Positions 4,154 through 63,357 of a stretch of DNA of 64,000 bases are shown here, piece by piece. The DNA lies in NCBI GenBank assembly GCA_963712115.1, contig CAVQGX010000020.1:160001-224000 (forward strand), in the 5' to 3' direction. The notes beneath the pieces are model-generated. The model had not been told where the DNA came from, ran no database searches, and saw only the letters and a list, made by a program, of their open reading frames with translations. Made by a program: the position numbers and the translations under genes. The DNA is from an uncultured delta proteobacterium (lineage in GTDB: Bacteria > Desulfobacterota > Syntrophobacteria > BM002). The stretch's first letter is position 1. The number at the start of each line of letters is the position of its first letter.

Positions 4154-4753
4154 CTAGTGTGCTGGTCTTTTGCGGCTGATGATGTTCATCAGACCGAGGA
4201 GGAGTCCTAAACACACGAAGGCGCCCGGTGCCTTGACTATAAAACTGAGAGGTTCAAAGCTGGACCACATGACGCTGGCGCCAAAGAGAGTACCGTTGCC
4301 CAAAATCTCCCTTATACTTCCCAGAACAGTGAGAGAGATGGTGAAGCCCAGCCCGATCCCCAGGCCATCCGCCAGCGAGTAAATGATAGAGTTTTTGGAG
4401 GCGAAGGCCTCGGCTCGGCCTAAAATAATGCAGTTGACCACTATCAAGGGAATAAAAATTCCCAGAATTTTAAAGAGGGGATAGAAATAGGCCTGCATTA
4501 AAAGTTCTACGATGACCACAAAGGAGGCTATCACCACAATGTAGGAAGCGATTCTTACCTTACTAGGGATGACCTTTCTCAGTATCGAGACGAGAACGTT
4601 GGAGAAAACCAAAACAAAGGTCGTGGCCAATCCCATTCCCACACCGTTTTCGGCAGCGGTGGTAACTGCCAAGGTTGGGCAGAGGCCCAAGACAAGTCTG
4701 AACGGCGGGAGTTCCTTCCAGAATCCCTTGGTAAACTCTTTGACCACACTCAT
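4154..4753 (-). CDS. rnfE: Rnf complex subunit E
   Basis: LGLCPTLAVT, LGIFIPLIVVNCIILGRAEAFA, REILGNG motifs. Confidence 0.95.
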   Translation of the reverse strand: MSVVKEFTKGFWKELPPFRLVLGLCPTLAVTTAAENGVGMGLATTFVLVFSNVLVSILRKVIPSKVRIASYIVVIASFVVIVELLMQAYFYPLFKILGIFIPLIVVNCIILGRAEAFASKNSIIYSLADGLGIGLGFTISLTVLGSIREILGNGTLFGASVMWSSFEPLSFIVKAPGAFVCLGLLLGLMNIISRKRPAH

Positions 4754-5334
4754 GGCTTAAATGCCTCCTCTTTAATCTTAGGAAACTCCTTCAGCGCTTC
4801 GGTAACGGCAGTAACAACGCCCACGGTGGAGAAAGTTGCACCGCTGAGAGCGTCGACCTTGCCTCCTTCCGCCGAAAGCTTGGTTGTATCAAGATCCAGA
4901 CCGGCAAACTGGTCGGTGAATGACGGTTCTACAATTCTGGCACCCAGTCCGGGAGTCTCGGTATGGGTCATAATACTGATGCCGGTGAGCTTGCCGTCCG
5001 GACCCACTCCCACCATTACCTCTATAAGGTCGTGATATCCTTTGGCAGCAGCACTAAAGGCTACTGCCTGGGTTTTTCCGCCTTTTTTTGCAGGAAAAAC
5101 CACTTTTTCTAAGGGGTTGCCTTCCCCATCTTCCCCCAGCACCACCTTGATCCGTTCCTTGATTGGATCGTTGTCGAAGTCGCTCAGAACCGCCTTCATG
5201 GAAGGCTCTTGCACGAACTTGATGTACTGATACTCTCGGGGTGCCTTGGTGGCCTCGTTGACATAGGACAAGACCACACCCGAGGTGGTGCATATAACCA
5301 ATAAAACCACGACCATTTTTATTAGATCACGCAA
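4750..5334 (-). CDS. rnfG: Rnf complex subunit G
   Basis: N-terminal TM, HTETPGLG and VDALSGATFST (covalent FMN motif). Confidence 0.95.
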   Translation of the reverse strand: MRDLIKMVVVLLVICTTSGVVLSYVNEATKAPREYQYIKFVQEPSMKAVLSDFDNDPIKERIKVVLGEDGEGNPLEKVVFPAKKGGKTQAVAFSAAAKGYHDLIEVMVGVGPDGKLTGISIMTHTETPGLGARIVEPSFTDQFAGLDLDTTKLSAEGGKVDALSGATFSTVGVVTAVTEALKEFPKIKEEAFKP

Positions 5335-7973: not shown

Positions 7974-8198
7974 GAAGGCATGGGGCATAGGGCATAGGGA
8001 AAAATTCGAAATTGTCCTTCAGACTCCCACCCTTCGGGCGGGTTCCCGGTTTCGCAATCCTAAATATTCTGGTCCTCTACCTCTTACAATAAATGACAGC
8101 GCAGCGTAATGACCTAATGACAGCGACGCGTAGTGACCCGAATCGCCTTGCGCCTTTAGCCATTGACTCTATGCTCTATGCCCTTTGCTCCATGCCCT
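7974..8198. repeat. About 220-bp composite dispersed repeat, copy 1 (copy 2 at 44208-44420; partial copy near 14300-14355)
   Basis: Shares gaaggcatggggcatagggcat, gactcccaccctt and the identical tacctcttacaataaatgacagcgcagcgtaatgacctaatgac with 44208-44420. Confidence 0.85.
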
Positions 8199-8305: not shown

Positions 8306-8466
8306 ATTCCCTCCCCCTCGACGGGGAGGGTTAGGGTGGGGGTGAGCCGCCGGCCATCTTCCGCCTCCCGCCAGGGGAGGGGAAGAAGGGATCTTTCGAC
8401 TGGGGGAACAAGCCTGACCGCCATCGTCCGCCTAGGGCGGATCAGGCGATGGTCGGCGGTCGAAAA
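8306..8466. repeat. REP-like palindromes plus a nested GC-rich palindrome (8413-8459)
   Basis: ccctccccctcgacggggagggttagggtggggg; cctgaccgccatcgtccgcctagggcggatcaggcgatggtcggcgg interrupting a tttcgact...agtcgaaa hairpin. Confidence 0.7.
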
Positions 8467-12954: not shown

Positions 12955-13078
12955 TGTAGACTGCATGCGCAAAGAGCATAGAGTTAGGGGCAAAAGGCTT
13001 GAGGCTCAAGGCGCAAGGAGAAATGATTCCGCAGATTGCGGACTGCGTATATTGATTTAGCTAATCGAAGAAATGCTC

Positions 13079-13159
13079 GATGTGGGATGTGAGATCTGAG
13101 ATGTGGGATGGAAGATAGAGGTTAAGGATCCCACATCTCACATCGCATATCTCATATCC
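13079..13159. repeat. 7-nt-period GATGTGG/CACATC inverted-repeat array
   Basis: gatgtgggatgtgagatctgagatgtgggatg...atcccacatctcacatcgcatatctcatatc. Confidence 0.8.
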
Positions 13160-13199
13160 ATAATTTCTCCTGAAAGAAGAAGAATTAATAAGGTGTATA

Positions 13200-14553: not shown

Positions 14554-14680
14554 ATTGAATATCGAACAGCAGAACAAGGAACCGTAGAATCATGAAGTGA
14601 TCACTTCGATATTCGATATTCCTTGTTCGATATTCTGCGGTTTAGAAGCCTGACGGGCAAGCGTAAAACCCGCCCCTACT
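14554..14680. repeat. Empty GAATATCGAACAAGG element plus adjacent GTAG-type REP
   Basis: gaatatcgaacagcagaacaaggaaccgtagaatcatgaagtgatcacttcgatattcgatattccttgttcgatattctgcggttt followed by gggcaagcgtaaaacccgcccctac. Confidence 0.85.
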
Positions 14681-23028: not shown

Positions 23029-23202
23029 ATAGGGGCGGGGTTTGCCCCCGCCCGTCAGACTTTTAAACCGCAGAATATCGAACAAGGAATATCGAATATC
23101 GAAGTGACCCCTTCATGATTCTGCGGTTTTTTGTTCTGCTGTTCGACCTGCCCGCCATCGTCCGCCTGAGGCGGACTCAGGCGAGGCGGGCGGGTATTCA
23201 AT
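23029..23202. repeat. REP plus empty GAATATCGAACAAGG element carrying a 48-nt palindromic insertion (23147-23194)
   Basis: Inverted copy of 14554-14680 with cctgcccgccatcgtccgcctgaggcggactcaggcgaggcgggcggg inserted between ttcga and tattcaat. Confidence 0.85.
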
Positions 23203-23263: not shown

Positions 23264-23336
23264 CCCGCAGAATATCGAACAAGGAATATGGAAGTGATCC
23301 CTTCGTGATTCTGCGGTTCCTTGTTCTACATTCGAT
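23264..23336. repeat. Shorter empty GAATATCGAACAAGG element
   Basis: ccgcagaatatcgaacaaggaatatggaagtgatcccttcgtgattctgcggttccttgttctacattcga. Confidence 0.8.
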
Positions 23337-27867: not shown

Positions 27868-28005
27868 AAACCGCAGAATATCGAACAAGGAATGCCGAAT
27901 ATCGAAGTGATTACTTCATGATTCTGCGGTTCCTTGTTCTGCATTCGACCTGCCCGCCATCGTCCGCCTGAGGCGGACTCAGGCGAGGCGGGCGGGATAT
28001 TCAAT
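27868..28005. repeat. Empty GAATATCGAACAAGG element with the same 48-nt insertion (27949-27996), inside pilin cassette 2
   Basis: Near-identical to 23065-23202. Confidence 0.85.
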
Positions 28006-29460: not shown

Positions 29461-30042
29461 TTATTTTTTACATTCATCTATTGGTTTAGGCCCCTCCAGT
29501 TTCAACCCTCCAGAGGTTTTTTTAAATTTCACCTCATAACACCGCTCATTGTTGGAAACCGTCACTACACCTTCATCATCAGTAAAACTAGAATCAACTG
29601 GAAAACCACGGGAATTGTAGCCAGCCGCATTTGCAGCGAATGTTGTCTTGTCCAGGTTGACATCGACGGGCATTTCGACATACTTCAAGCGCTCCTCAGT
29701 GCCATCCTGCGACCGATTACCAGCATTTCCTCCCGCCCCCGCTCCATTGTCCACAAATATAATGTAGCTACCCGGACTATTCCCAACATCGGGGTAGAAG
29801 TTCAAAGCGATGTTACTGCTGCGCTTGACCGCTTCCAAACGAGCATACTGGAAGTAGGTAAACAGGTCCCTGGCCGCACTTTTCAGCCGCTGGTTGCTTG
29901 CCCAACCCGAAAGGTTGGGAATTGCAACTGCAGCCAGTGCCATCAGAATAGCAATAACGATCAATACCTCGACCGTAGTGAAACCCCCAGGTTGATGACC
30001 TATGCAGTGAACTCCGTCCTTTGTCATAATCATCTGAGCCAC
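29461..30042 (-). CDS. FimT/FimU-like minor pilin 2
   Basis: GG|FTTVEVLIVIAIL, ARLEAVKRS, YNSRG. Confidence 0.85.
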   Translation of the reverse strand: MAQMIMTKDGVHCIGHQPGGFTTVEVLIVIAILMALAAVAIPNLSGWASNQRLKSAARDLFTYFQYARLEAVKRSSNIALNFYPDVGNSPGSYIIFVDNGAGAGGNAGNRSQDGTEERLKYVEMPVDVNLDKTTFAANAAGYNSRGFPVDSSFTDDEGVVTVSNNERCYEVKFKKTSGGLKLEGPKPIDECKK

Positions 30043-30569: not shown

Positions 30570-32381
30570 ATGAGTCGAAGCCGGCTGGATTTAGATTATT
30601 TGATCGGTGTGCTGAGCAGACGCGGCCTGATTAGTGAACGCCAGGCGAAAGTCATCTCTCAAAAGGCGCCTGCCCAAAAGGAGAAGCTCACTCAGCTGCA
30701 CAAGGTGAAGAGAGGGGGATTGTCCTCACTGAGGCGCGGAGATGAGGTCACGCCAGTGGATGTTCTGGCCTCCATGGGATTGAAACTGGGCAAGGAAGAA
30801 AATGACCGTCTCAATGAAGAGGCCATCATGCGGATGGTGGCAGCTGACCTGGGGATGACTTTCAAAAAGATCGACCCACTAAAGCTGGACCTGGAGTTGG
30901 TCACCCAGACCATTCCCAAAAACTTCGCCCTCAAACACATGGTCCTTCCGGTGGAGAGTTCCCTGGAAACGATCACCGTGGCAGTCTACGATCCTTTTAA
31001 TCGTCAGGTTTTGGAGGACATCGAGCGAGTTACCAAAAAGCGGCTGGAAGCTCTCATCAGTACCAAGAGTGACATTGTCAAAACCATCTCTGAGTTTTAC
31101 GGGTTCAAGAGCTCAATTGTTGCCGCCGACACTCAGTTGAGTAAGCCCTTAGTTGACCTGGGAAACCTGGAACAGCTCACTCACTTGCAGGCGACAGAGG
31201 AGATCTCCTCGAGTGACCAGCACATAACCAATGCGGTAGATCACCTGTTCAGCTACGGTTTTGATCAGCGGGCTAGTGACGTTCACATTGAGCCCAAGCG
31301 GGAAAAAACCATCGTAAGACTTCGCATAGATGGTTTGCTGCACACTATTTACCGGATACCCAAGAGTGTGCACCCGGCGATTGTTTCCAGAATCAAGGCC
31401 CTGGCCCGGCTGGACCTTGCAGAGAAGCGCAGGCCGCAAGATGGACGGATCAAGGTGGAACGCAATGGCAAGGAGGCGGAAATTAGGATTTCAACCGTGC
31501 CGGTGGCCTTCGGTGAAAAGTTGGTGCTTAGAATCCTGGATCCTGACATTCTCTTGCAGGACCTTGAAGGATTGGGATTTTCATCAGCAGATCTCATCAA
31601 GTATCGTAGACTTATAGAGGTGCCCCACGGAATAGTTTTGATAACCGGTCCAACAGGAAGCGGAAAGACCACCACCCTTTACTCCAGTTTGCGCTTTCTC
31701 GCCTCCGAGGGCAACAACATCACCACTATTGAAGATCCCATCGAAATGGTGCACGAACAGTTCAACCAGATTGCCGTAAAGCCACGAATCAACCTTACCT
31801 TCGCCAATGTCCTGCGCCATGTTCTCCGTCAGGATCCCGACATCATCATGATCGGAGAAATGCGAGACCTCGAGACAGCAACCAATGCTATTCAGGCCGC
31901 CCTCACTGGCCACCTTGTTCTGAGTACTTTGCACACCAACGATGCAGCCAGCGCCATAACCCGTCTGATGGACCTGGGGGTGCAGCCCTTCCTGATCTCC
32001 TCAACCCTCACTGGTGTGGCGGCCCAGAGATTGGTGCGCAAGATTTGTCCTCACTGCGAAGAGTTATACAAGGTGAAGGTTGCTGATCTGGCTCCCCTGG
32101 CCTTGGGCAAGGACCCGGAAACCGAACTGGAACTCAAGATGGGCAAGGGTTGCCAACAGTGCCGCAACACCGGCTATCTGGGACGCAGCGGCATATTCGA
32201 GGTGCTGCCCATGAGCGAAAAACTGAGGGACCTGACCAACCGGAAGGGTTCACTGGCACAACTGCAAAAGGTCGCCTTGCACGAGGGTATGCTAACCCTC
32301 CAACAGTCCGCCGTCGACAAAATGCTACGGGGAGTGACGACTTTTGAGGAAGTGGTCAGGGTCACTCTGGGTGAAAGGTAG
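30570..32381 (+). CDS. GspE/PilB-family secretion ATPase
   Basis: ASDVHIEP, PQDGRI, GPTGSGKTTTLY, LRQDPDIIMIGEMRD, CPHC/CQQC zinc motif. Confidence 0.93.
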   Translation: MSRSRLDLDYLIGVLSRRGLISERQAKVISQKAPAQKEKLTQLHKVKRGGLSSLRRGDEVTPVDVLASMGLKLGKEENDRLNEEAIMRMVAADLGMTFKKIDPLKLDLELVTQTIPKNFALKHMVLPVESSLETITVAVYDPFNRQVLEDIERVTKKRLEALISTKSDIVKTISEFYGFKSSIVAADTQLSKPLVDLGNLEQLTHLQATEEISSSDQHITNAVDHLFSYGFDQRASDVHIEPKREKTIVRLRIDGLLHTIYRIPKSVHPAIVSRIKALARLDLAEKRRPQDGRIKVERNGKEAEIRISTVPVAFGEKLVLRILDPDILLQDLEGLGFSSADLIKYRRLIEVPHGIVLITGPTGSGKTTTLYSSLRFLASEGNNITTIEDPIEMVHEQFNQIAVKPRINLTFANVLRHVLRQDPDIIMIGEMRDLETATNAIQAALTGHLVLSTLHTNDAASAITRLMDLGVQPFLISSTLTGVAAQRLVRKICPHCEELYKVKVADLAPLALGKDPETELELKMGKGCQQCRNTGYLGRSGIFEVLPMSEKLRDLTNRKGSLAQLQKVALHEGMLTLQQSAVDKMLRGVTTFEEVVRVTLGER

Positions 32382-32411
32382 CATCACGCAGATGGTAATA
32401 CAGGGTTCTCC

Positions 32412-32885
32412 TCGAATATCGAATATCGAACAGCAGAACAAGGAACCGCAGAACGGAACAAGAAGTTTCGAATCATGAGGCTTTTTTCTTCCTTTTTTGA
32501 GCGGTTTTTATGCTTGTCACAAAAATCGAAATCAGCTCATTATTCTCTACAATCAGAGGTTCAAGTTTTGATGCTGGCTTTATCAATTTGGCCCTTACAA
32601 TCATAAGCAACCATACCCTAGTCTCACGTAACTCTTTAAGTGATACTTTCATCTTGTGGATAAAGTCAGAACGAGATTCTGCGCTTTGAGCTTCACCATA
32701 GTTGGGAGCCGGGGAAGTGCCACAACGAATGAGTTGTCCTGCAATGTGATTTCCTACCCTCGTTTTTGGCAAGGATTCTGCTATACGAATAATCCGAATG
32801 GCAAAATCAATTAAGCGCTCCTCGAGGTCAAATATTCTGTTCTCCTTCGACATTCAAAATTCCTTGTTCGATATTCTGCGGTTCG
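32412..32885. mobile_element. Putative repeat-bounded cassette carrying a four-helix-bundle gene
   Basis: Left arm 32412-32466 and right arm 32845-32885 match the two halves of the empty element at 14554-14643. Confidence 0.65.
32473..32853 (-). CDS. Four helix bundle protein (23S rRNA IVP-like family)
   Basis: DLEERLIDFAIRII...QLIRCGTSPAPNYGEAQSAESRSDFIHKMKVSLKELRETRVWL. Confidence 0.92.
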   Translation of the reverse strand: MSKENRIFDLEERLIDFAIRIIRIAESLPKTRVGNHIAGQLIRCGTSPAPNYGEAQSAESRSDFIHKMKVSLKELRETRVWLLMIVRAKLIKPASKLEPLIVENNELISIFVTSIKTAQKRKKKAS

Positions 32886-32906
32886 AGTTGATACCTCCCT
32901 GCTGAA

Positions 32907-33492
32907 CTACCATCTTTCCCAACCTTGGCCATAGTGCCTCCAGAGTTGGGTCAAGCAGTTGGAGCGGAGACGGATGGCGAAGGTCCGGCCTTTGCTATTG
33001 TGGAGGTAAATAGTGCCCGTGCTGCAGGTCCCGTCGGGATTGAACTTGATTCTATTCTGTGCGAAGCTAACCCCATCTCCACCACCGGCAGTGATCTTGG
33101 TGTTATTTGGCCCGCGCTCTGGCCCTCCAAATTCGGCAGGATAGGCTTTAAGGTGTACCTTAGGAAATAGTCCTAAATCAAATACCATATCGCTTTTCTC
33201 TAAGAGTTCCTTCCGGCGATTTTCGTTGCGATCCCCCCAGAGGAAGCAGCCTGCAGATTCCAAATCTCCGTCGCCGTCGAGATCGAAGTCAAAATAGTGA
33301 ATGATGGACTGGTTTATGGCCCTGAGCTTCGCTCGGTGGATTTGGACCACCAAGGATCGCGCCGCACTGGTGAGACGGTAATTTGGGATCATTTCAACAA
33401 GGTGGGGCAGGCCCAAAGCGGTTGTAACACTATCACGGCCAGAGTAGACCACAAGTTCTTTCAAAGTAATGCCTATTTGCAGAGGATTTCAT
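32907..33492 (-). CDS. Orphan FimT/GspH-like pilin (indels in the N-terminal helix)
   Basis: G|ITLKELVV prepilin-like start, LTSAARSLV..IHRAKLRAI, FNPDGTCSTGTIYL. Confidence 0.7.
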
Positions 33493-37127: not shown

Positions 37128-39482
<2,355 letters not shown>

Positions 39483-39483
39483 G

Positions 39484-40551
39484 TTAAATAGCCCCCGTGG
39501 CTGCCCGGATTAGACCGAAGCATCCGGAGAGCATCATGTCTCCATAAGGTGCAGCAAAATAATAACCGAGGCTTTTTGCCAGATGTCTTTGAGGGCCGGT
39601 TACCACCACAGTTGCAAAAGAACTCATATCTCTTGCTTGGGGCAGGGTGACACAGCCATGTCCGTGATCAGAGAAAACTTCTTCGTCAGTGAGTGTACCT
39701 TGACAAAATCGTTCTAAATGGTCATGAAGCTTGGCAACGGACAGACAACCTGTGTGATGCTCGTAAATACCAACAATTCTGGAGTTGATTACCAGCGAAG
39801 CTACTGCATGTTGGTTGCCCAGGTTCAATATTACCACCCCCTCTTCGGTCTTTTCCCCTACCAGGGGGTCGCAAAGGGCTCCCAAAATGGCAGCTGCACC
39901 GGTGTCCATCACCAGGGCTCCGGGCAAATCACGCTGTACAGCAAGCATTCGCGTCAGATAATCTGGTGGTTCCCTGTACCACAGTTGATCCAGACTACCT
40001 CCTCGATCAAGGAAGTCACGCCATATGCGGAAACGGAACAGTCGGTTACTACCATGGGGGGAAAACCCATGATCCTGAACTGCCACGGCATGGGAGTCCG
40101 GGAGTTCAACCTCGAATGGACCAAGGGCTTTTGCGAGAGCGGCAAGATCTACATCGCCCATGGTCACGGGAGTTGCCTCAGGAGGCGGATTTTCCACTAA
40201 AGTTACTCCCATGTTTTTCACGCGATCAAGGTTGTCATAAATGGTCAAAGCAGCCCCTACTGACGCATATACGGGATAACCTCCCTTTAGGTGTTCCTGA
40301 ATGGCCTGTACACAGGCGCCACCACCCATGAGATTTCCCCTGAGGAAAATGGGAAGACCCTGGGAGGTGCAACGACGGATGCGTGCCGCCACTACCACTG
40401 TCTGGGAAGGAAGTACCAGTTTTACGCAATTTTCTATGGGAACGTCAGGCTGCCAGAGGAGAATATCCTGAGTGCCGCCACCAACGTCGATGGCGAGGGT
40501 AGGTCTTGCATTAGGTTGCGGTCTGTATGAAGGCATATTCTGGGTTCTCAT
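39484..40551 (-). CDS. DUF1786-family protein (ASKHA-like fold)
   Basis: LAIDVGGGTQDILL, MGGG, AVQDHG, MDTG, NLGNQH, YEHHT, PYGDMMLSGCFGL. Confidence 0.85.
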   Translation of the reverse strand: MRTQNMPSYRPQPNARPTLAIDVGGGTQDILLWQPDVPIENCVKLVLPSQTVVVAARIRRCTSQGLPIFLRGNLMGGGACVQAIQEHLKGGYPVYASVGAALTIYDNLDRVKNMGVTLVENPPPEATPVTMGDVDLAALAKALGPFEVELPDSHAVAVQDHGFSPHGSNRLFRFRIWRDFLDRGGSLDQLWYREPPDYLTRMLAVQRDLPGALVMDTGAAAILGALCDPLVGEKTEEGVVILNLGNQHAVASLVINSRIVGIYEHHTGCLSVAKLHDHLERFCQGTLTDEEVFSDHGHGCVTLPQARDMSSFATVVVTGPQRHLAKSLGYYFAAPYGDMMLSGCFGLIRAATGAI

Positions 40552-40738
40552 GCGGACCGACGAGGCGAGGCTGACTAGGCACTAAGCACTAGACACTAGG
40601 CACCAAGGCCTATTCTTCAAAGTTTTTTGTAGTGCCTAGTGCATACTGCCTAGTTTCAGATTTCTATCTCTCCGCGTCACCGTGTCTATTATGCATCAGG
40701 GCTGTCACTAGTACAAGGGACAAAGGCTCTACTTTGAT

Positions 40739-44156: not shown

Positions 44157-44207
44157 CTCGCGAAGATTCCAGCTTACAGTCCCCCTTGGTCAATTGTCTG
44201 TTGCATC

Positions 44208-44420
44208 GAAGGCATGGGGCATAGGGCATGGGGAAAAATCCTAATTTGGAATTTCGAAATTTTCCTTCGGACTCCCACCCTTTGCATGGATTCCCGGTTT
44301 CGCAATTCTAAACTTTTTGGCCCCCTACCTCTTACAATAAATGACAGCGCAGCGTAATGACCTAATGACGGCGAAGCATAATGACCCTAATGGCCTTGCG
44401 CCCCTGGCTCTATGCGTTTT
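44208..44420. repeat. Composite dispersed repeat, copy 2
   Basis: Direct copy of 7974-8198. Confidence 0.85.
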
Positions 44421-48776: not shown

Positions 48777-51287
48777 TCAGTTCGACTGCCGGTAGATTTG
48801 GGACAGCCTCTCAATGGAAGAGGGTTCATAAACAGAAATGTCTGATGGATAATAGAGGGCAGCGTCGGTGGCCGGTTGATCATTGCCGTTGTAGCCGCAG
48901 AAAGTAGTGCCAGCAATAGTGGTTATAATAGCTGTGGTGCCATCCACCATTCTGACTCGACAGTTATCAGTGTCGACAATAAACATATTTCCCGAGCTAT
49001 CTACCCATACGCCTTCCGGATAATCCAGTTGAGCTTGGGTGGCCAGTCCACCGTCGCCTGAAAAACCCGGGGTACCATTTCCGGCAACGGTGTTTATGAT
49101 CTTGGTTGTGGCATCCACCTTTCTGACCACATCGTTCTTGGTGTCCGTAACGTAGATGTTTCCGGAAGCATCCACATACACGCCAGTGGGTGTATTCAAA
49201 AGAGCCTCGGTTGCCAGGCCACCATCGCCTGAAAAGCCAGCATTCGTACCCTGGCCCACCACGGTGTCTATGATCCCTGTGGTGGCATCCACTTTTCGAA
49301 TGCAGTGACTGTGAGAGTCGGCAATGTAGAGGTTGCCTTCTTTGTCCACTGCCACATCATAAGATTTCATGATGCTGGCATCTATGGCCAACCCTCCATC
49401 TCCTTTAAATTTGGCGTCGAACCGTCGCCAACTACAGTGGTTATTATCTGGGTTTGAGCATCCACTTTTCTGATACGGTAGTTGTAGGTATCCACAATGT
49501 AGATATTCCCTGCCGAATCCACGTAAACACTGAAGGGATACCTGAGCCTGGCGCTGGTTGCAGGTCCGCCGTCTCCGGAAAATCCTTTGGAACCGGTACC
49601 GGCAACGGTAGTGATGATTCCGGTTTTGGCATTTACCTTTCTGATCCGATGATTGTAAGTATCGGCAATGTAGAGATTTCCAGAAGCATCCAGGTGCACG
49701 CCAAAAGGGTAATTAAGTCTAGCCCAGGTAGCCAGTATGTTATCCCCGTTGTAGCCCGACCAAATGGTGCCGGCGGCTGAGGTGAGAAAGCCCTCTTTGA
49801 GGTCCACCTTTCTAATCCGATAATTAGAAGGATCGGAAATGTAGAGGTAGGCAGGGGCAGGAGACTCGTAGGCGCAGACACCCTGAGGTTTTTTGAGTGA
49901 GGCATCGATGGCCAGCCCGTAGTCACCCGAGTAACCCTCGCTGCCATTGCCTGCGGCAGTGGTAATATCTTTCGTGGTAACGCTTACTTTTCTTATGCGG
50001 CTGTTTTCGGTATCAGCAATGAGTAGATTCCCTATTTCATCCAGCCAAACGGTTTTTGGTTTTTTGAGTGAAGCAAGAATGGCCTGGTCACCATCTCCCG
50101 AATAATCTCCTGAGCCATTGCCTGCGACCGTGGTAATTGTCATGGTACCAGCATCGTCATAGACCATTCTGATGCGGTGGTTTTCGGTGTCAGCAATATA
50201 GATGTTTCCCAAACTATCGACAACAACCCCGGATGGTTTGTCCAGTTTGGCTGAGGTTGCCGGCCCGTCGTCTCCCAAATAACCATGGTCGCCGTCGCCA
50301 GCTACGGTAGTGATTATATTGGTTCCACCATCCACTTTTCTGATGACATGATTTTCCGTGTCGGCAATATAGATGTTATTAGAACTATCGACAAAAACCC
50401 CCAGAGGTTTCTTGAGCGAAGCCAGGGTAGCCTGGAAGGTATCTCCCGAATAACCTCCTGACCCGTTGCCAGCGACGGTAGTAATTATCCCGGTTTCACC
50501 ATCCACTTTTCTGATGACATGATTTTCCGTGTCGGCAATATAGATGTTCTCCAATGCGTCAACAAAAACCGCGCTCGGTTTGTCGAGTTGGGCCTGAGTG
50601 GCCGGTCCATTATCTCCCGAATAGCCTATGACTGCCGTTGCCTGCCACCGTAGTTATTTCCCTGGTTGTGGCATCCACTTTTCTGATGACGTGATTTTCC
50701 GTGTCGGCAATATAGATGTTTTCGGAACTATCGACAAAAACTCCCTGCGGTTTGTCGAGTCTGGCTTCCACTGCTGGCCCATTGTCACCCGTATAGCCGC
50801 TGTTGCCGGTGCCCGCGATGGTATCGATTATCCCGGTTGTTGTATCCACTCTTCTGATGACATGATTTTCCGTGTCAGCAATAAGGTAGAAAATTCTGGT
50901 CTGAGCAATCAGCTGAAAAGAAGTTGAGAATTGTTTGATCCCCCCCCCGGGGACTTTAACCGTAACCGTGACCACATCTTTAAAGCCGGTGATGGAGGCG
51001 TCAACCACTGTGCGAGTGTAGCTAATGCCCTCGAATACGTAATCCTCACCTGAACTGCTTGTTCGCCAAGCAGGATTGCGGCTCAGATTCCAGGCAGCCT
51101 CTTCAAGGGCTGCTATCTGGCCCAGGTGGACCTGGCTGTTCCGGGTTTGGTTGGCCGTCACCCTGGCCTGCATGGAGGCTCGCCTGTTCATGCCCGCTGC
51201 CATTGCAGCCATGACAAGCATCATCAGGACGACTACAATGAGCACGTAGCCTCGGTCGTTCTTATGTCTTCTAATAAGTTCCAGCAT
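48777..51287 (-). CDS. PilX/GspK-like pilin fused to about 12 NHL repeats (indels near 50628 and 49417)
   Basis: RG|YVLIVVVLMMLVM prepilin start; ORFs 50610..51287, 49382..50554 and 48777..49391 are one continuous YIADTENHVIRKVD...TVAG.G..G.SGDGG repeat series. Confidence 0.8.
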
Positions 51288-61101: not shown

Positions 61102-63357
61102 TTACGATGTTGGAACTTCCGTCATGGGTTCGTCAGTGGCCTCAGTAGTAAGCTCCTCAGCCGGGGCTACCTCGCCGGTCTCGTCGACGGTGGTTTCCTC
61201 AGGTATTGAGGGAGCACCCATCACAATGGGTTCGTCAGTGGCCTCAGTGGTAAGCTCCTCAGCCGGAGCTACCTCGCCGGTCTCGTCGACGGTGGTTTCT
61301 TCAGGTATTGAGGGGGCACCCATCATAGTGGCTTCCTCAATGGCCTCAGCAGTAGGTTCCTCAGCAGGAGCTACCTCGCCGGTCTCTTTGAAGGCGGTTT
61401 CCTCTACTCCTTGCACCTCTTGGCCGCTACCTTCGTCAACCGGTTCAGGCGCAATAGTAGCGGGGGCGACACTAACCGGCTCAGAACCGGTGAGAGTAGG
61501 AACTATACCGGTAGTCTCACCTGGGGTGGTGTCCTCAGAGCCTAAAAATCCCTCATCTGATAACTCATCACTCTGGACCGCTACTGTCTTCGCCTCAGTC
61601 AATGTTGTTGTGGTTTCCTCCTCTGCATCATCGCCTGGCCACACCACATCTAGAGTTTGCCAGGCTTCACTGTCTGGTCGATCTGATTCCAGGGTTAAGC
61701 AATAGTCAGTCTGGTAGAACCGAAGGAGTGGTCGAATTACCATGACGTAATAGTAACCGTCCTCCGGCAGATCTGCCGACATATCAAAGGGGATCTGGTC
61801 TTTCTTTCTTGCCCTAAAATCAACATTTGGGATCGCATCCCGAATACCCAGGAACACCCTCCCTTTGCCTCTGCGGTTCAGCCAGGAATAAAAAAGTGTG
61901 TTTACCGAGGATTCCTCTCCGGCCATCACAGTTTCTTCCCCTTCTGGTGCCAGTCTCAAGGTGATCTTTTCACCTGCTTTGCCCTGAAACTTGAACAGGC
62001 CGATGGCACGATGTAGGGGGTTGTTTTTGAGTTTAAGTTTGGAGAGTTTAGGAACGTTAGTTTCGGAACTGGCAGTAGTTGCACTGGTAATGCTCGAAGA
62101 ACAGAGGGTTTTTACGGGCTCTTCATTCGGGGGAGCCTCCCCAACCACAAAGGTCAGGCCGTTTACCGCGGCTATGGGCTCACCGATGGTCAGAGCTTGG
62201 CCGTTCACATGATCTATCTTAAGAACATTTCCTGAACTATCAACACCGTACAAAACGTTCTCATGACTAAAGTCAAGAGCCACTACTGTAACCTGGCCGT
62301 TCGCCCCCACGGTTTGGATCGCACCCACAGTTTCGATCGAGAACTCTGGTTCTAAGCGGATCCTGATAAGATCACTTGCGCTGGAAACGGAGGCAACACC
62401 ATATAGTACCTTTTCAGATGAATGATATGCTAGACTTGTTACGTGCCAAGTCAATGAAGCAATAGTCTCTAAGCCTAATAACCCATCGGGAGTTTGACTG
62501 ATAGTAACCAGGCTATACTTTTCCACAGCCTGCAGAGCATCAATGTCGTCGGTGTGAAAAAGAACTCCATACAGGGTATCTCCTGCTGATTCGAGTGCGA
62601 CAAAGCCGCCCTCGACATAATTAAACTCGGCAACTTTGGTGCCATCATTTGGGTTAATGGTAACAATGCTACCGGGGTAACCTGTATCGTTGGCAGCGAA
62701 GAGCACCTTGCTAATAGGATCGAAGTCTATGTCGGCTATCGGGCCGATCTCTAGGGGGAAACGAAGAGAGCTTTGCCCATTATCAGGGTCGATACTTATG
62801 AGCGACCCACTTTCGGAACCAGTGGTACCCAACAGATCACCAACTTTAACGTCCGCGATGGGGCCAGGCGGGTTGGACGGATCTGAACATTGGAGAAAGA
62901 GCATGTAGGAACCGGTATTACCACCTTTATCAACAGCTACTTCACCTTCATTTTTTGAGGAGGCACTGATAGCAAGGTAGTAGGTGCCATCCACAATAAC
63001 TTTGATCTCAAGATATGGGTCGACAACAGTGATCTCTCCTGGCGCTTTGTCGTCATCGCTGGCACCGATTGGCTTTCCAGCGCCATCGAAGACTTCCAAC
63101 AAAGAGTCAAGGGAAGAAAGATCCTCCGCATCAACATCGATGGTCAGCACCTGGCCCGCCACAAGATCGATGGAGTAATAATCAACTTGATCAGCTGAAG
63201 TAATTTCGCCATTCCAGCTCGTTGGAGGATCAGAGCAGGTGACGGGGGTCGCAGTGGTAAAATCTGAATCAGTAGGTACGACCGCATGAACTACCGGCAC
63301 AGTGCCAAATATTAAAATGATAACTGCAAGTAAGATTAGTCTGAACGTGGGTTTCAT
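61102..63357 (-). CDS. Secreted protein with PPC-like domain, probable beta-propeller and acidic C-terminal repeats
   Basis: Signal peptide, DQVDYYSIDLVAGQVLTIDVDA...LDSLLEVFD...DD...DPYL...GTYYL; repeated LYG/IDP blades. Confidence 0.75.
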   Translation of the reverse strand: MKPTFRLILLAVIILIFGTVPVVHAVVPTDSDFTTATPVTCSDPPTSWNGEITSADQVDYYSIDLVAGQVLTIDVDAEDLSSLDSLLEVFDGAGKPIGASDDDKAPGEITVVDPYLEIKVIVDGTYYLAISASSKNEGEVAVDKGGNTGSYMLFLQCSDPSNPPGPIADVKVGDLLGTTGSESGSLISIDPDNGQSSLRFPLEIGPIADIDFDPISKVLFAANDTGYPGSIVTINPNDGTKVAEFNYVEGGFVALESAGDTLYGVLFHTDDIDALQAVEKYSLVTISQTPDGLLGLETIASLTWHVTSLAYHSSEKVLYGVASVSSASDLIRIRLEPEFSIETVGAIQTVGANGQVTVVALDFSHENVLYGVDSSGNVLKIDHVNGQALTIGEPIAAVNGLTFVVGEAPPNEEPVKTLCSSSITSATTASSETNVPKLSKLKLKNNPLHRAIGLFKFQGKAGEKITLRLAPEGEETVMAGEESSVNTLFYSWLNRRGKGRVFLGIRDAIPNVDFRARKKDQIPFDMSADLPEDGYYYVMVIRPLLRFYQTDYCLTLESDRPDSEAWQTLDVVWPGDDAEEETTTTLTEAKTVAVQSDELSDEGFLGSEDTTPGETTGIVPTLTGSEPVSVAPATIAPEPVDEGSGQEVQGVEETAFKETGEVAPAEEPTAEAIEEATMMGAPSIPEETTVDETGEVAPAEELTTEATDEPIVMGAPSIPEETTVDETGEVAPAEELTTEATDEPMTEVPTS
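61124..61405 (-). repeat. 102-bp (34-aa) intragenic tandem repeat, about 2.7 copies
   Basis: EETTVDETGEVAPAEELTTEATDEP(IVMGAPSIP) repeated. Confidence 0.9.

Follow-up and report, generated by a model that had tools for sequence, protein, structure and literature searches.

The genome under study (G000, 4.9 Mb) carries a cassette in which the gene for a four-helix-bundle protein lies between two complementary arrays of degenerate 7-nt units, along with many copies of the same arms joined without the gene. We consider it likely that this feature is a selfish hairpin cassette of the type known as the 23S rRNA intervening sequence (IVS), here located outside rRNA and accompanied by MITE-like gene-less derivatives. 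The unit comprises an arm, the four-helix-bundle gene and the complementary arm, and would have no promoter of its own, and the gene-less copies of about 90 nt would persist and multiply without the gene, as the MITEs of transposons do. The cassette lies in a window of 64 kb, the whole stretch of DNA analysed here, and positions given without a contig name refer to this window.

The gene (32473..32853, minus strand) has 126 codons and encodes a product of 126 aa with a pI of 10.1 and a tail rich in Lys and Arg. The product matches PF05635 (E 4.5e-13, 49.8 bits against a curated cut-off of 33.8) and TIGR02436 (E 1.7e-23, 82.9 bits against a curated cut-off of 24). These matches bear out the four-helix-bundle gene placed at the locus by the original prediction and assign the protein to the 23S rRNA IVS/S23p-type family. 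The closest solved structure (PDB 2rld_A, a sequence match with E 1.4e-15) comes from an entry with five chains, and the four-helix-bundle relative Xcc0516 is a pentamer, as cited in the accessible text of PMC4990558. The 126-aa protein is basic and probably pentameric. PF05635 is the only Pfam domain found in the gene, no transposase domain occurs inside the cassette, and searches of the PADLOC (defence) and PHROGs (phage) libraries returned no match. Copies in two genomes of the same genus encode proteins 86% (G008) and 85% (G011) identical to it, and the dN/dS of these intact copies against the gene (0.10-0.17) indicates that the protein is under purifying selection. In-frame stops are present in 12 of 32 protein matches from related genomes.

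Downstream of the gene, in gene sense, is the left arm of the plus strand (32412..32472), with the units GAATATC GAATATC GAACAGC ...AACCGCAGAA. It pairs with the right arm (32842..32885), which lies upstream of the gene. Alignment to the gene-less copies agrees with the positions at which these flanking arms had been claimed. The upstream arm itself holds AAGGA (32865-32861, minus strand), a 7-nt spacer, the ATG (32853-32851) and the first three codons, so the claim that this arm supplies both AAGGA and ATG is correct. At the other end, the TGA stop codon (32475-32473) sits in arm-like sequence (TCATGATTC) that is retained by gene-less copies. Read in gene sense, the filled copy runs ...GGAATTTTGA-ATG-TCG-AAG, the gene, TCA-TGA-TTC..., and the gene-less copies run ...GGAATATCGA-ATA-TCG-AAG-TGATCACT-TCA-TGA-TTC.... 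Thus, arm sequence supplies the ribosome-binding site, both the start and the stop codon and the first three codons, which puts the gene exactly at the symmetry centre of the arms, as had been proposed. The right arm (32845-32883) matches 14604-14642 at 92% and is 90-92% complementary to 23066-23104 and 27869-27907, and the left arm (32426-32453) is 93% complementary to 23119-23146; about 16-19 nt of the left arm (32412..32472) are missing from the gene-less copies. The predicted fold of the whole cassette (506 nt, z -2.1) has the two arms base-paired around the start codon. Terminal inverted repeats form a stem around the S23p-family ORF, and heptamers stand in tandem upstream of it. G-U pairs in the arms of 11 paralogues numbered 47 in sense and 31 in antisense orientation, in alignments that extended past the arms.

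The helix-45 IVS of Coxiella burnetii, as described in the accessible text of PMC4990558, has a 28-bp terminal stem, is cleaved by RNase III and carries tandem heptamers before its S23p ORF. The same text cites ORF-bearing 23S rRNA IVSs in Leptospira, Brucella and Xanthomonas; IVSs are regarded as selfish, and an older proposal cited there holds that the ORF serves mobility. As far as these descriptions go, the cassette is like a 23S rRNA IVS in having a PF05635-family ORF in the loop of a stem of terminal repeats, with tandem heptamers just upstream. It is unlike one in that it lies outside rRNA, between pilB and a convergent protein gene, and in that it has tens of gene-less derivatives per genome.

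Four gene-less copies with directly joined arms are present in the window, all of them at the coordinates and in the orientations originally claimed: 14554..14643 on the plus strand and 23065..23202, 23264..23336 and 27868..28005 on the minus strand. The first has the centre GAAGTGATCACTTC, with ATA where the filled copy has ATG. The claimed common centre (gaagtgatcacttc) is exact in this copy only and carries 1-3 changes in the others. Arm alignment indicates that the extra length of the copies at 23065..23202 and 27868..28005 is due to a 53-nt G+C-rich hairpin nested in one arm, which is the same in both (100% alike, 23142-23194 and 27944-27996); the copy at 23264..23336 is shorter. The gene-less copies are predicted to fold into hairpins on either strand, with z from -2.4 (23264..23336) to -5.9 (27868..28005) and values of -3.2 and -4.0 for the two strands of the copy at 14554..14643.

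The nested hairpin is of a kind separate from the arms, about 40-53 nt long and very G+C-rich (CCCGCCCGCC...GGCGGGCAGG). It is also found at 8408-8460 (64%) and on contigs C2, C27, C33, C37, C51 and C68 of G000. Hairpins of this kind lie inside the arms of several heptamer families and split the array every time, as if a second tiny element targeted heptamer arrays.

A 22-nt core has 27 matches in G000: one is the filled copy, one is a partial copy and 25 are gene-less, seven of these with the nested hairpin. All copies are intergenic, and the upstream gene reads into the element in 20 of 27 cases. The core was found in 19 of the 41 genomes searched (G000 counted), including 16 of the 17 other genomes of the same genus and none of the 19 outside the family, with a maximum of 38 copies per genome. 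The core read backwards had no match in any of the 41 genomes; the 27 matches in G000 are thus not due to chance. Genomes rich in gene-less copies include G016 (38), G012 (36), G010 (28) and G007 (26), where the best protein match is 40-48% identical or absent, and the gene-carrying G008 and G011 have only three and two core copies. Across the genus genomes compared, the number of copies does not track whether the cognate gene is present, although the gene may have been missed in some of them because the genomes are 83-95% complete and assemblies break at repeats.

The gene-less copies are internal-deletion derivatives of the filled cassette, as indicated by copies that keep the first part of the gene. 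In seven of eight loci fetched (from G005, G009, G010, G014 and G018), the ATG and the first 23-33 codons survive between the upstream and downstream arms, with a short run of A-rich sequence before the latter. These arms also recur, around other centres, in gene-less copies of strain NaphS2 and Candidatus Brocadia pituitae, some of which have a nested hairpin of their own. The end points of the deletions differ yet always spare the inner arm ends, which by comparison of these copies is MITE-like formation. The original prediction had the arms capture or lose a gene. Loss is shown by the codon-keeping intermediates, but no evidence of capture by empty arms was found among the copies compared, and no other cargo was found between these arms. 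The DUF1786 gene (39484-40551) was considered as cargo between like arms and rejected, as the ACTAGGC-type arms flanking it are two separate elements: a gene-less hairpin upstream (40574-40656) and a lone complementary arm downstream (39228-39272). The 3' gap of this gene (39280-39480) holds a chain of four more pyrimidine-rich arrays of other families.

Mobile insertion cassettes (MICs), for which MIC231 and IS231 are the comparison pair, and MITEs offer a close parallel to the gene-less copies. The likeness extends to short, multi-copy, non-coding derivatives that have both ends in common with a longer coding parent, to internal deletion and, in other genomes, to the occurrence of the cassette within a shell of inverted ends with an 11-bp duplication (see below). 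Unlike the parents of MITEs, the filled cassette encodes no transposase, PF05635 being its sole domain, and its 'ends', which vary from subfamily to subfamily, are long arrays of 7-nt units. Inspection by eye of the sequence beside the 27 copies in G000 revealed no recognisable target-site duplication; the flanks at orthologous sites are too diverged for one to be read.

The cassette is flanked by pilB (T2SSE) and by a convergent ORF (32907-33464) that has no Pfam match. The latter had been called fimT, a name that belongs elsewhere, as the GspH/FimT-like gene is at 29461-30042. The site after pilB differs among congeners. G002 has only a 34-nt terminator hairpin and no element; G016 has an empty element with the family-typical centre; G007 has an empty element with both the family-typical centre and the nested hairpin; and G000 has the filled cassette. 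A filled cassette in G011 adjoins the same downstream gene, with an N gap on its other side. In G004 the site is taken by a gene-less hairpin of GCGCATA units, and three genomes have other TIGR02436 cassettes there, with arms of GTCCGTT units (G014), ACTAGGC units (G009) and CAGCAGG units (G010). The genes of these three (TIGR02436 E 5e-24 to 1e-27) are only 20-25% identical to the 126-aa protein, and the pilB beside them has 75-81% DNA identity. This disparity rules out divergence in place, so the site must have been occupied repeatedly. The comparison of these loci indicates that cassettes have been gained, lost and replaced at one site within the genus. The claim that filled and empty states coexist therefore applies even at a single orthologous site (G000 against G016 and G007), and the locus is not invariant among relatives.

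The typical centres of the empty copies in G016 and G007, and the typical nested hairpin in G007, lead us to infer exchange with dispersed copies. Whether filled and empty alleles at one site would interconvert by homologous recombination through the arms with such copies is, in our estimate, evenly balanced, and ordinary recombination between dispersed copies would most simply account for the switch from filled to empty at this site. At the other gene-less sites of the window (14554, 23065/23264 and 27868), the intergenic DNA of G002, G007, G014 and G016 is too different for junctions to be read, and hairpins built from other repeat units take up much of it; at 14554, G016 has a copy in the opposite orientation. 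The gene-less arms of G004 consist of ATAGCGC-type units that resemble the stem of the G002 terminator hairpin (AATAGCGC...GCGCTATT), which hints that an existing stem may be extended into arms where it stands, as its 7-nt units are duplicated.

A scan of species genomes with the single protein gave 330 relatives. The best 80 of the 330 include Planctomycetota, among them anammox bacteria (87-89% identity), Desulfobacterota, Nitrospirota, Verrucomicrobia, Kiritimatiellales, Acidobacteriota and Deferribacteres, as well as one Gammaproteobacteria MAG and one Nealsonbacteria MAG. The unit of arms plus gene occurs in at least eight phyla, with protein identity up to 89%, and some cultured or enriched organisms from other phyla carry near-identical cassettes (strain NaphS2, with two filled copies, and Candidatus Brocadia). 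At these best 80 of 330 loci, the arm motif GAATATCGAACAAGGAA (up to three mismatches) was found upstream in 60 and its complement downstream in 53, with both in 48 and either in 65; the reversed motifs, used as controls, were found in 1 and 0. Arms elsewhere are thus associated with four-helix-bundle genes, a point on which the original prediction had depended. The conservation of gene and arms together across phyla identifies the unit, from comparative evidence, as horizontally mobile. The arm unit tracks the relatedness of the protein: it is GAATATC/GAACAAG at protein identities of at least 85%, GAACATC/GAACGTC at 51-61%, AAATGAG at 42-48%, and other units at 37-41%. Each protein subfamily keeps its own unit.

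The cassette is not restricted to one family in G000. All 14 TIGR02436 matches in this genome sit between inverted arrays of units of about 7 nt, and the unit differs in each. The eight intact paralogues that were aligned are 15-33% identical to the 126-aa protein. Tandem arrays in G000 number 2780, of which 1489 have period 7 (226 distinct units), compared with 73 of period 6 and 302 of period 8. Within 300 nt, 224 of the period-7 arrays have an 11-mer partner in inverted orientation, against 9 in the control, and the 5' arm of the inverted period-7 arrays is purine-rich in 78 cases versus 27. The commonest unit is ACTAGGC (115 arrays). No ACTAGGC-armed four-helix-bundle gene was seen in G000; one is present in G009, at the site after pilB.

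Several other repeats were noted in G000. Units of the GGGATGT/GAGATCT type form a 41-nt inverted repeat around a loop of 18 nt (13069-13168), another gene-less heptamer hairpin. Two copies of a repeat of about 190 nt (8001-8181 and 44207-44402, 87-90% alike) have GGGCATA arrays at their start and form a composite family. Repeats with a 171-nt period (7-8 copies, 60-78% alike) and a 102-nt tandem repeat (3 copies) at 48941-50891 and 61124-61429 are probably repeat domains of large surface proteins. On contig C14 (38441-39062, locus L141 142-763), a paralogue is split after about codon 52 by a stand-alone GIY-YIG ORF of 84 aa (PF01541, E 3.4e-15). This type of nuclease was rejected as a general partner, as only three matches occur in G000, one of them within a 658-aa frame.

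No rRNA or other Rfam family was detected in the 64-kb window, nor at E <=1 in the cassette. From 23.7 to 41.5 kb there are 13 ORFs with 150 aa or more; the 10 that were scanned, all but three that overlap longer ORFs, have no transposase or reverse-transcriptase domain. The original statement that rRNA, reverse transcriptase and transposase are absent nearby holds over these ranges. We found no promoter-like site upstream on the strand of the gene and no terminator-like T tract at the cassette. In G000, 12 of 13 four-helix-bundle loci are co-oriented with an upstream long ORF, and this, together with the lack of a promoter-like site, fits expression by read-through. We lean towards transcription of the cassette by read-through from the upstream host gene. 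In the RNA, base pairing between the arms could bury the start codon in a long stem, to be cut by RNase III as in the Coxiella IVS; we give this step an even chance. Such cutting would make the insert harmless to host transcripts.

Contigs from two DNA and two RNA sequencing runs were placed on 31900-33300, and none had a joint from 32453 to 32845 anchored in the locus. Joints of this type carry 13-31 other letters and represent other gene-less copies from the community. In run X1, the depth at the arms is about 4750-5050, compared with roughly 10-160 in neighbouring genes. The gene body is covered by contigs in DNA runs X1 and X3 and by none in RNA runs X15 and X16, which, being contig data, is not evidence of silence.

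In some other genomes the cassette is enclosed by a further pair of ends. Outer inverted ends (CATAAGCGCTAA(C/G)TT) surround it at eight of the best 80 of the 330 related loci (L048, L049, L051, L053, L056, L062, L066 and L105), about 45 nt beyond the heptamer arms and 514-584 nt apart. L049, L051 and L062 have a perfect 11-bp direct duplication at the shell, and in L105 it matches at 9 of 11 positions. Judged by its ends and duplication, the structure that encloses the cassette is an ordinary transposon shell of the non-autonomous kind. In G001, G005 and G009, the relatives with GAACATC arms have similar outer ends. The original prediction of a transposase-less cassette system is right in that the cassette has no transposase of its own, but it may not apply to the system as a whole, as other genomes show the transposon shell.

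These outer ends and duplications are what would be expected if the unit were a passenger with no mobility of its own. Its arms would then act at the RNA level only (in processing, translation control or termination), and its protein would be unrelated to movement. The carriers could be non-autonomous shells mobilised in trans by an IS transposase, composite repeats, hairpin-specific Y1 (RAYT/IS200-type) transposases or homologous recombination between arms. The lack of a link between copy number and the cognate gene agrees with this model, as does the larger repeat to which some copies belong: 13 of the 25 gene-less copies in G000 have a longer flank in common and sit in chains of other heptamer arrays, so these copies may have multiplied within a composite repeat. 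Homologues of Y1_Tnp, found in 17 of 18 genus genomes, are a further point for it. However, shell ends form no pair in G000 (there are three unpaired matches, each with two mismatches), and G014 has 17 core matches yet no Y1_Tnp match at 95% completeness. The model also leaves unexplained why each protein subfamily has its own arm unit across phyla and why the inner arm ends are kept in every independent deletion derivative. We think it rather improbable.

Y1 transposases were considered as the candidate mobiliser; G000 has four Y1_Tnp matches, and the distribution of such matches over the genus shows no relation to copy number. The gene-less copies are like REP/BIME/REPIN elements, associated with the Y1 transposase RAYT, in being dispersed intergenic palindromes that form hairpins and reach tens to hundreds of copies. 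Unlike these, their arms are heptamer arrays rather than short G+C-rich REPs, and are tied to a four-helix-bundle gene instead of a RAYT, with Y1 unrelated to copy number.

A different possibility is that the protein itself takes part in movement. It might bind its own heptamer arms and promote copying or insertion with host enzymes, which we consider doubtful. As the cassette has no transposase domain, no target duplication was seen around the copies in G000 and copy number has no link to the gene or to Y1, a role as mobility factor is a minority bet. In its strongest form, which seems unlikely to us, this proposal would leave the four-helix-bundle pentamer as the sole factor encoded by the element, in what would be a new class of mobile element. 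Each subunit of the pentamer would recognise one of the tandem 7-nt units of its own arms, in a hairpin of DNA or RNA; enzymes of host replication or repair would be recruited; and the hairpin would be copied with or without the gene. Targets would be other intergenic sites prone to form hairpins, the tips of rRNA helices included.

Very improbable, finally, is a host function, in which the copies would be domesticated intergenic hairpins (bidirectional terminators or RNA-stability elements, like REP/BIME) spread by selection and not by selfish copying, with the protein as an RNA-binding regulator of the hairpins: the exclusively intergenic location, the upstream genes reading into most copies, the stability of the hairpins and the position of the element in place of the G002 terminator hairpin all suit it, but presence, absence and replacement at one site within a genus (pilB identity 75-90%), the in-frame stops in relatives, the lack of a terminator-like T tract, and the cross-phylum spread combined with deletion derivatives, which is the mark of a selfish element, speak against it.

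The reading that we prefer, a selfish IVS-type cassette outside rRNA with MITE-like derivatives, also invites comparison with two further systems. PF05635 proteins resemble Avd, the accessory protein of diversity-generating retroelements, and in the accessible text of PMC10053308 Avd belongs to the same fold family and works with nucleic acid and a polymerase. The Avd model NF033474 is absent from the NCBIfam matches of the 126-aa protein (E <=0.01), and matches of relatives at the pilB site to an Avd model are weak (1.3e-12 and 3.9e-05), both below the cut-off. Unlike a diversity-generating retroelement, the cassette has no reverse transcriptase and no template or variable repeats nearby.

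Heptamer repeats are known in bacteria, as in the STRR of cyanobacteria. Arrays of GGGAATC in Xanthomonas (70 of 186 in inverted pairs) and of GGGGA(C/T)T in Nostoc are described without a protein partner in the accessible text of PMC4692102. They are like the arms in being intergenic arrays of 7-nt units and, as described there, unlike the cassette in having no gene in the loop. In a literature search that covered few subscription journals, we found no report of the cassette outside rRNA, of its link to heptamer arrays or of its gene-less derivatives.

Three puzzles meet in this element: the role of the four-helix-bundle/S23p/IVS protein, the origin of the IVSs of 23S rRNA, and the excess of 7-nt tandem repeats in the intergenic DNA of bacteria. 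The repeats have consequences for the genomes that carry them, as they reshape intergenic regions, terminators and operon spacers, and they break metagenome assemblies (contigs end at repeats in G007, G010 and G011). A single genus offers a natural series that runs from the unoccupied site through the filled cassette and deletion intermediates to amplified gene-less copies, and this series makes the question of whether the protein acts on its own arms directly testable. If true, the new-class mechanism would explain the S23p/IVS family, the 23S rRNA IVS and the excess of heptamer repeats together.
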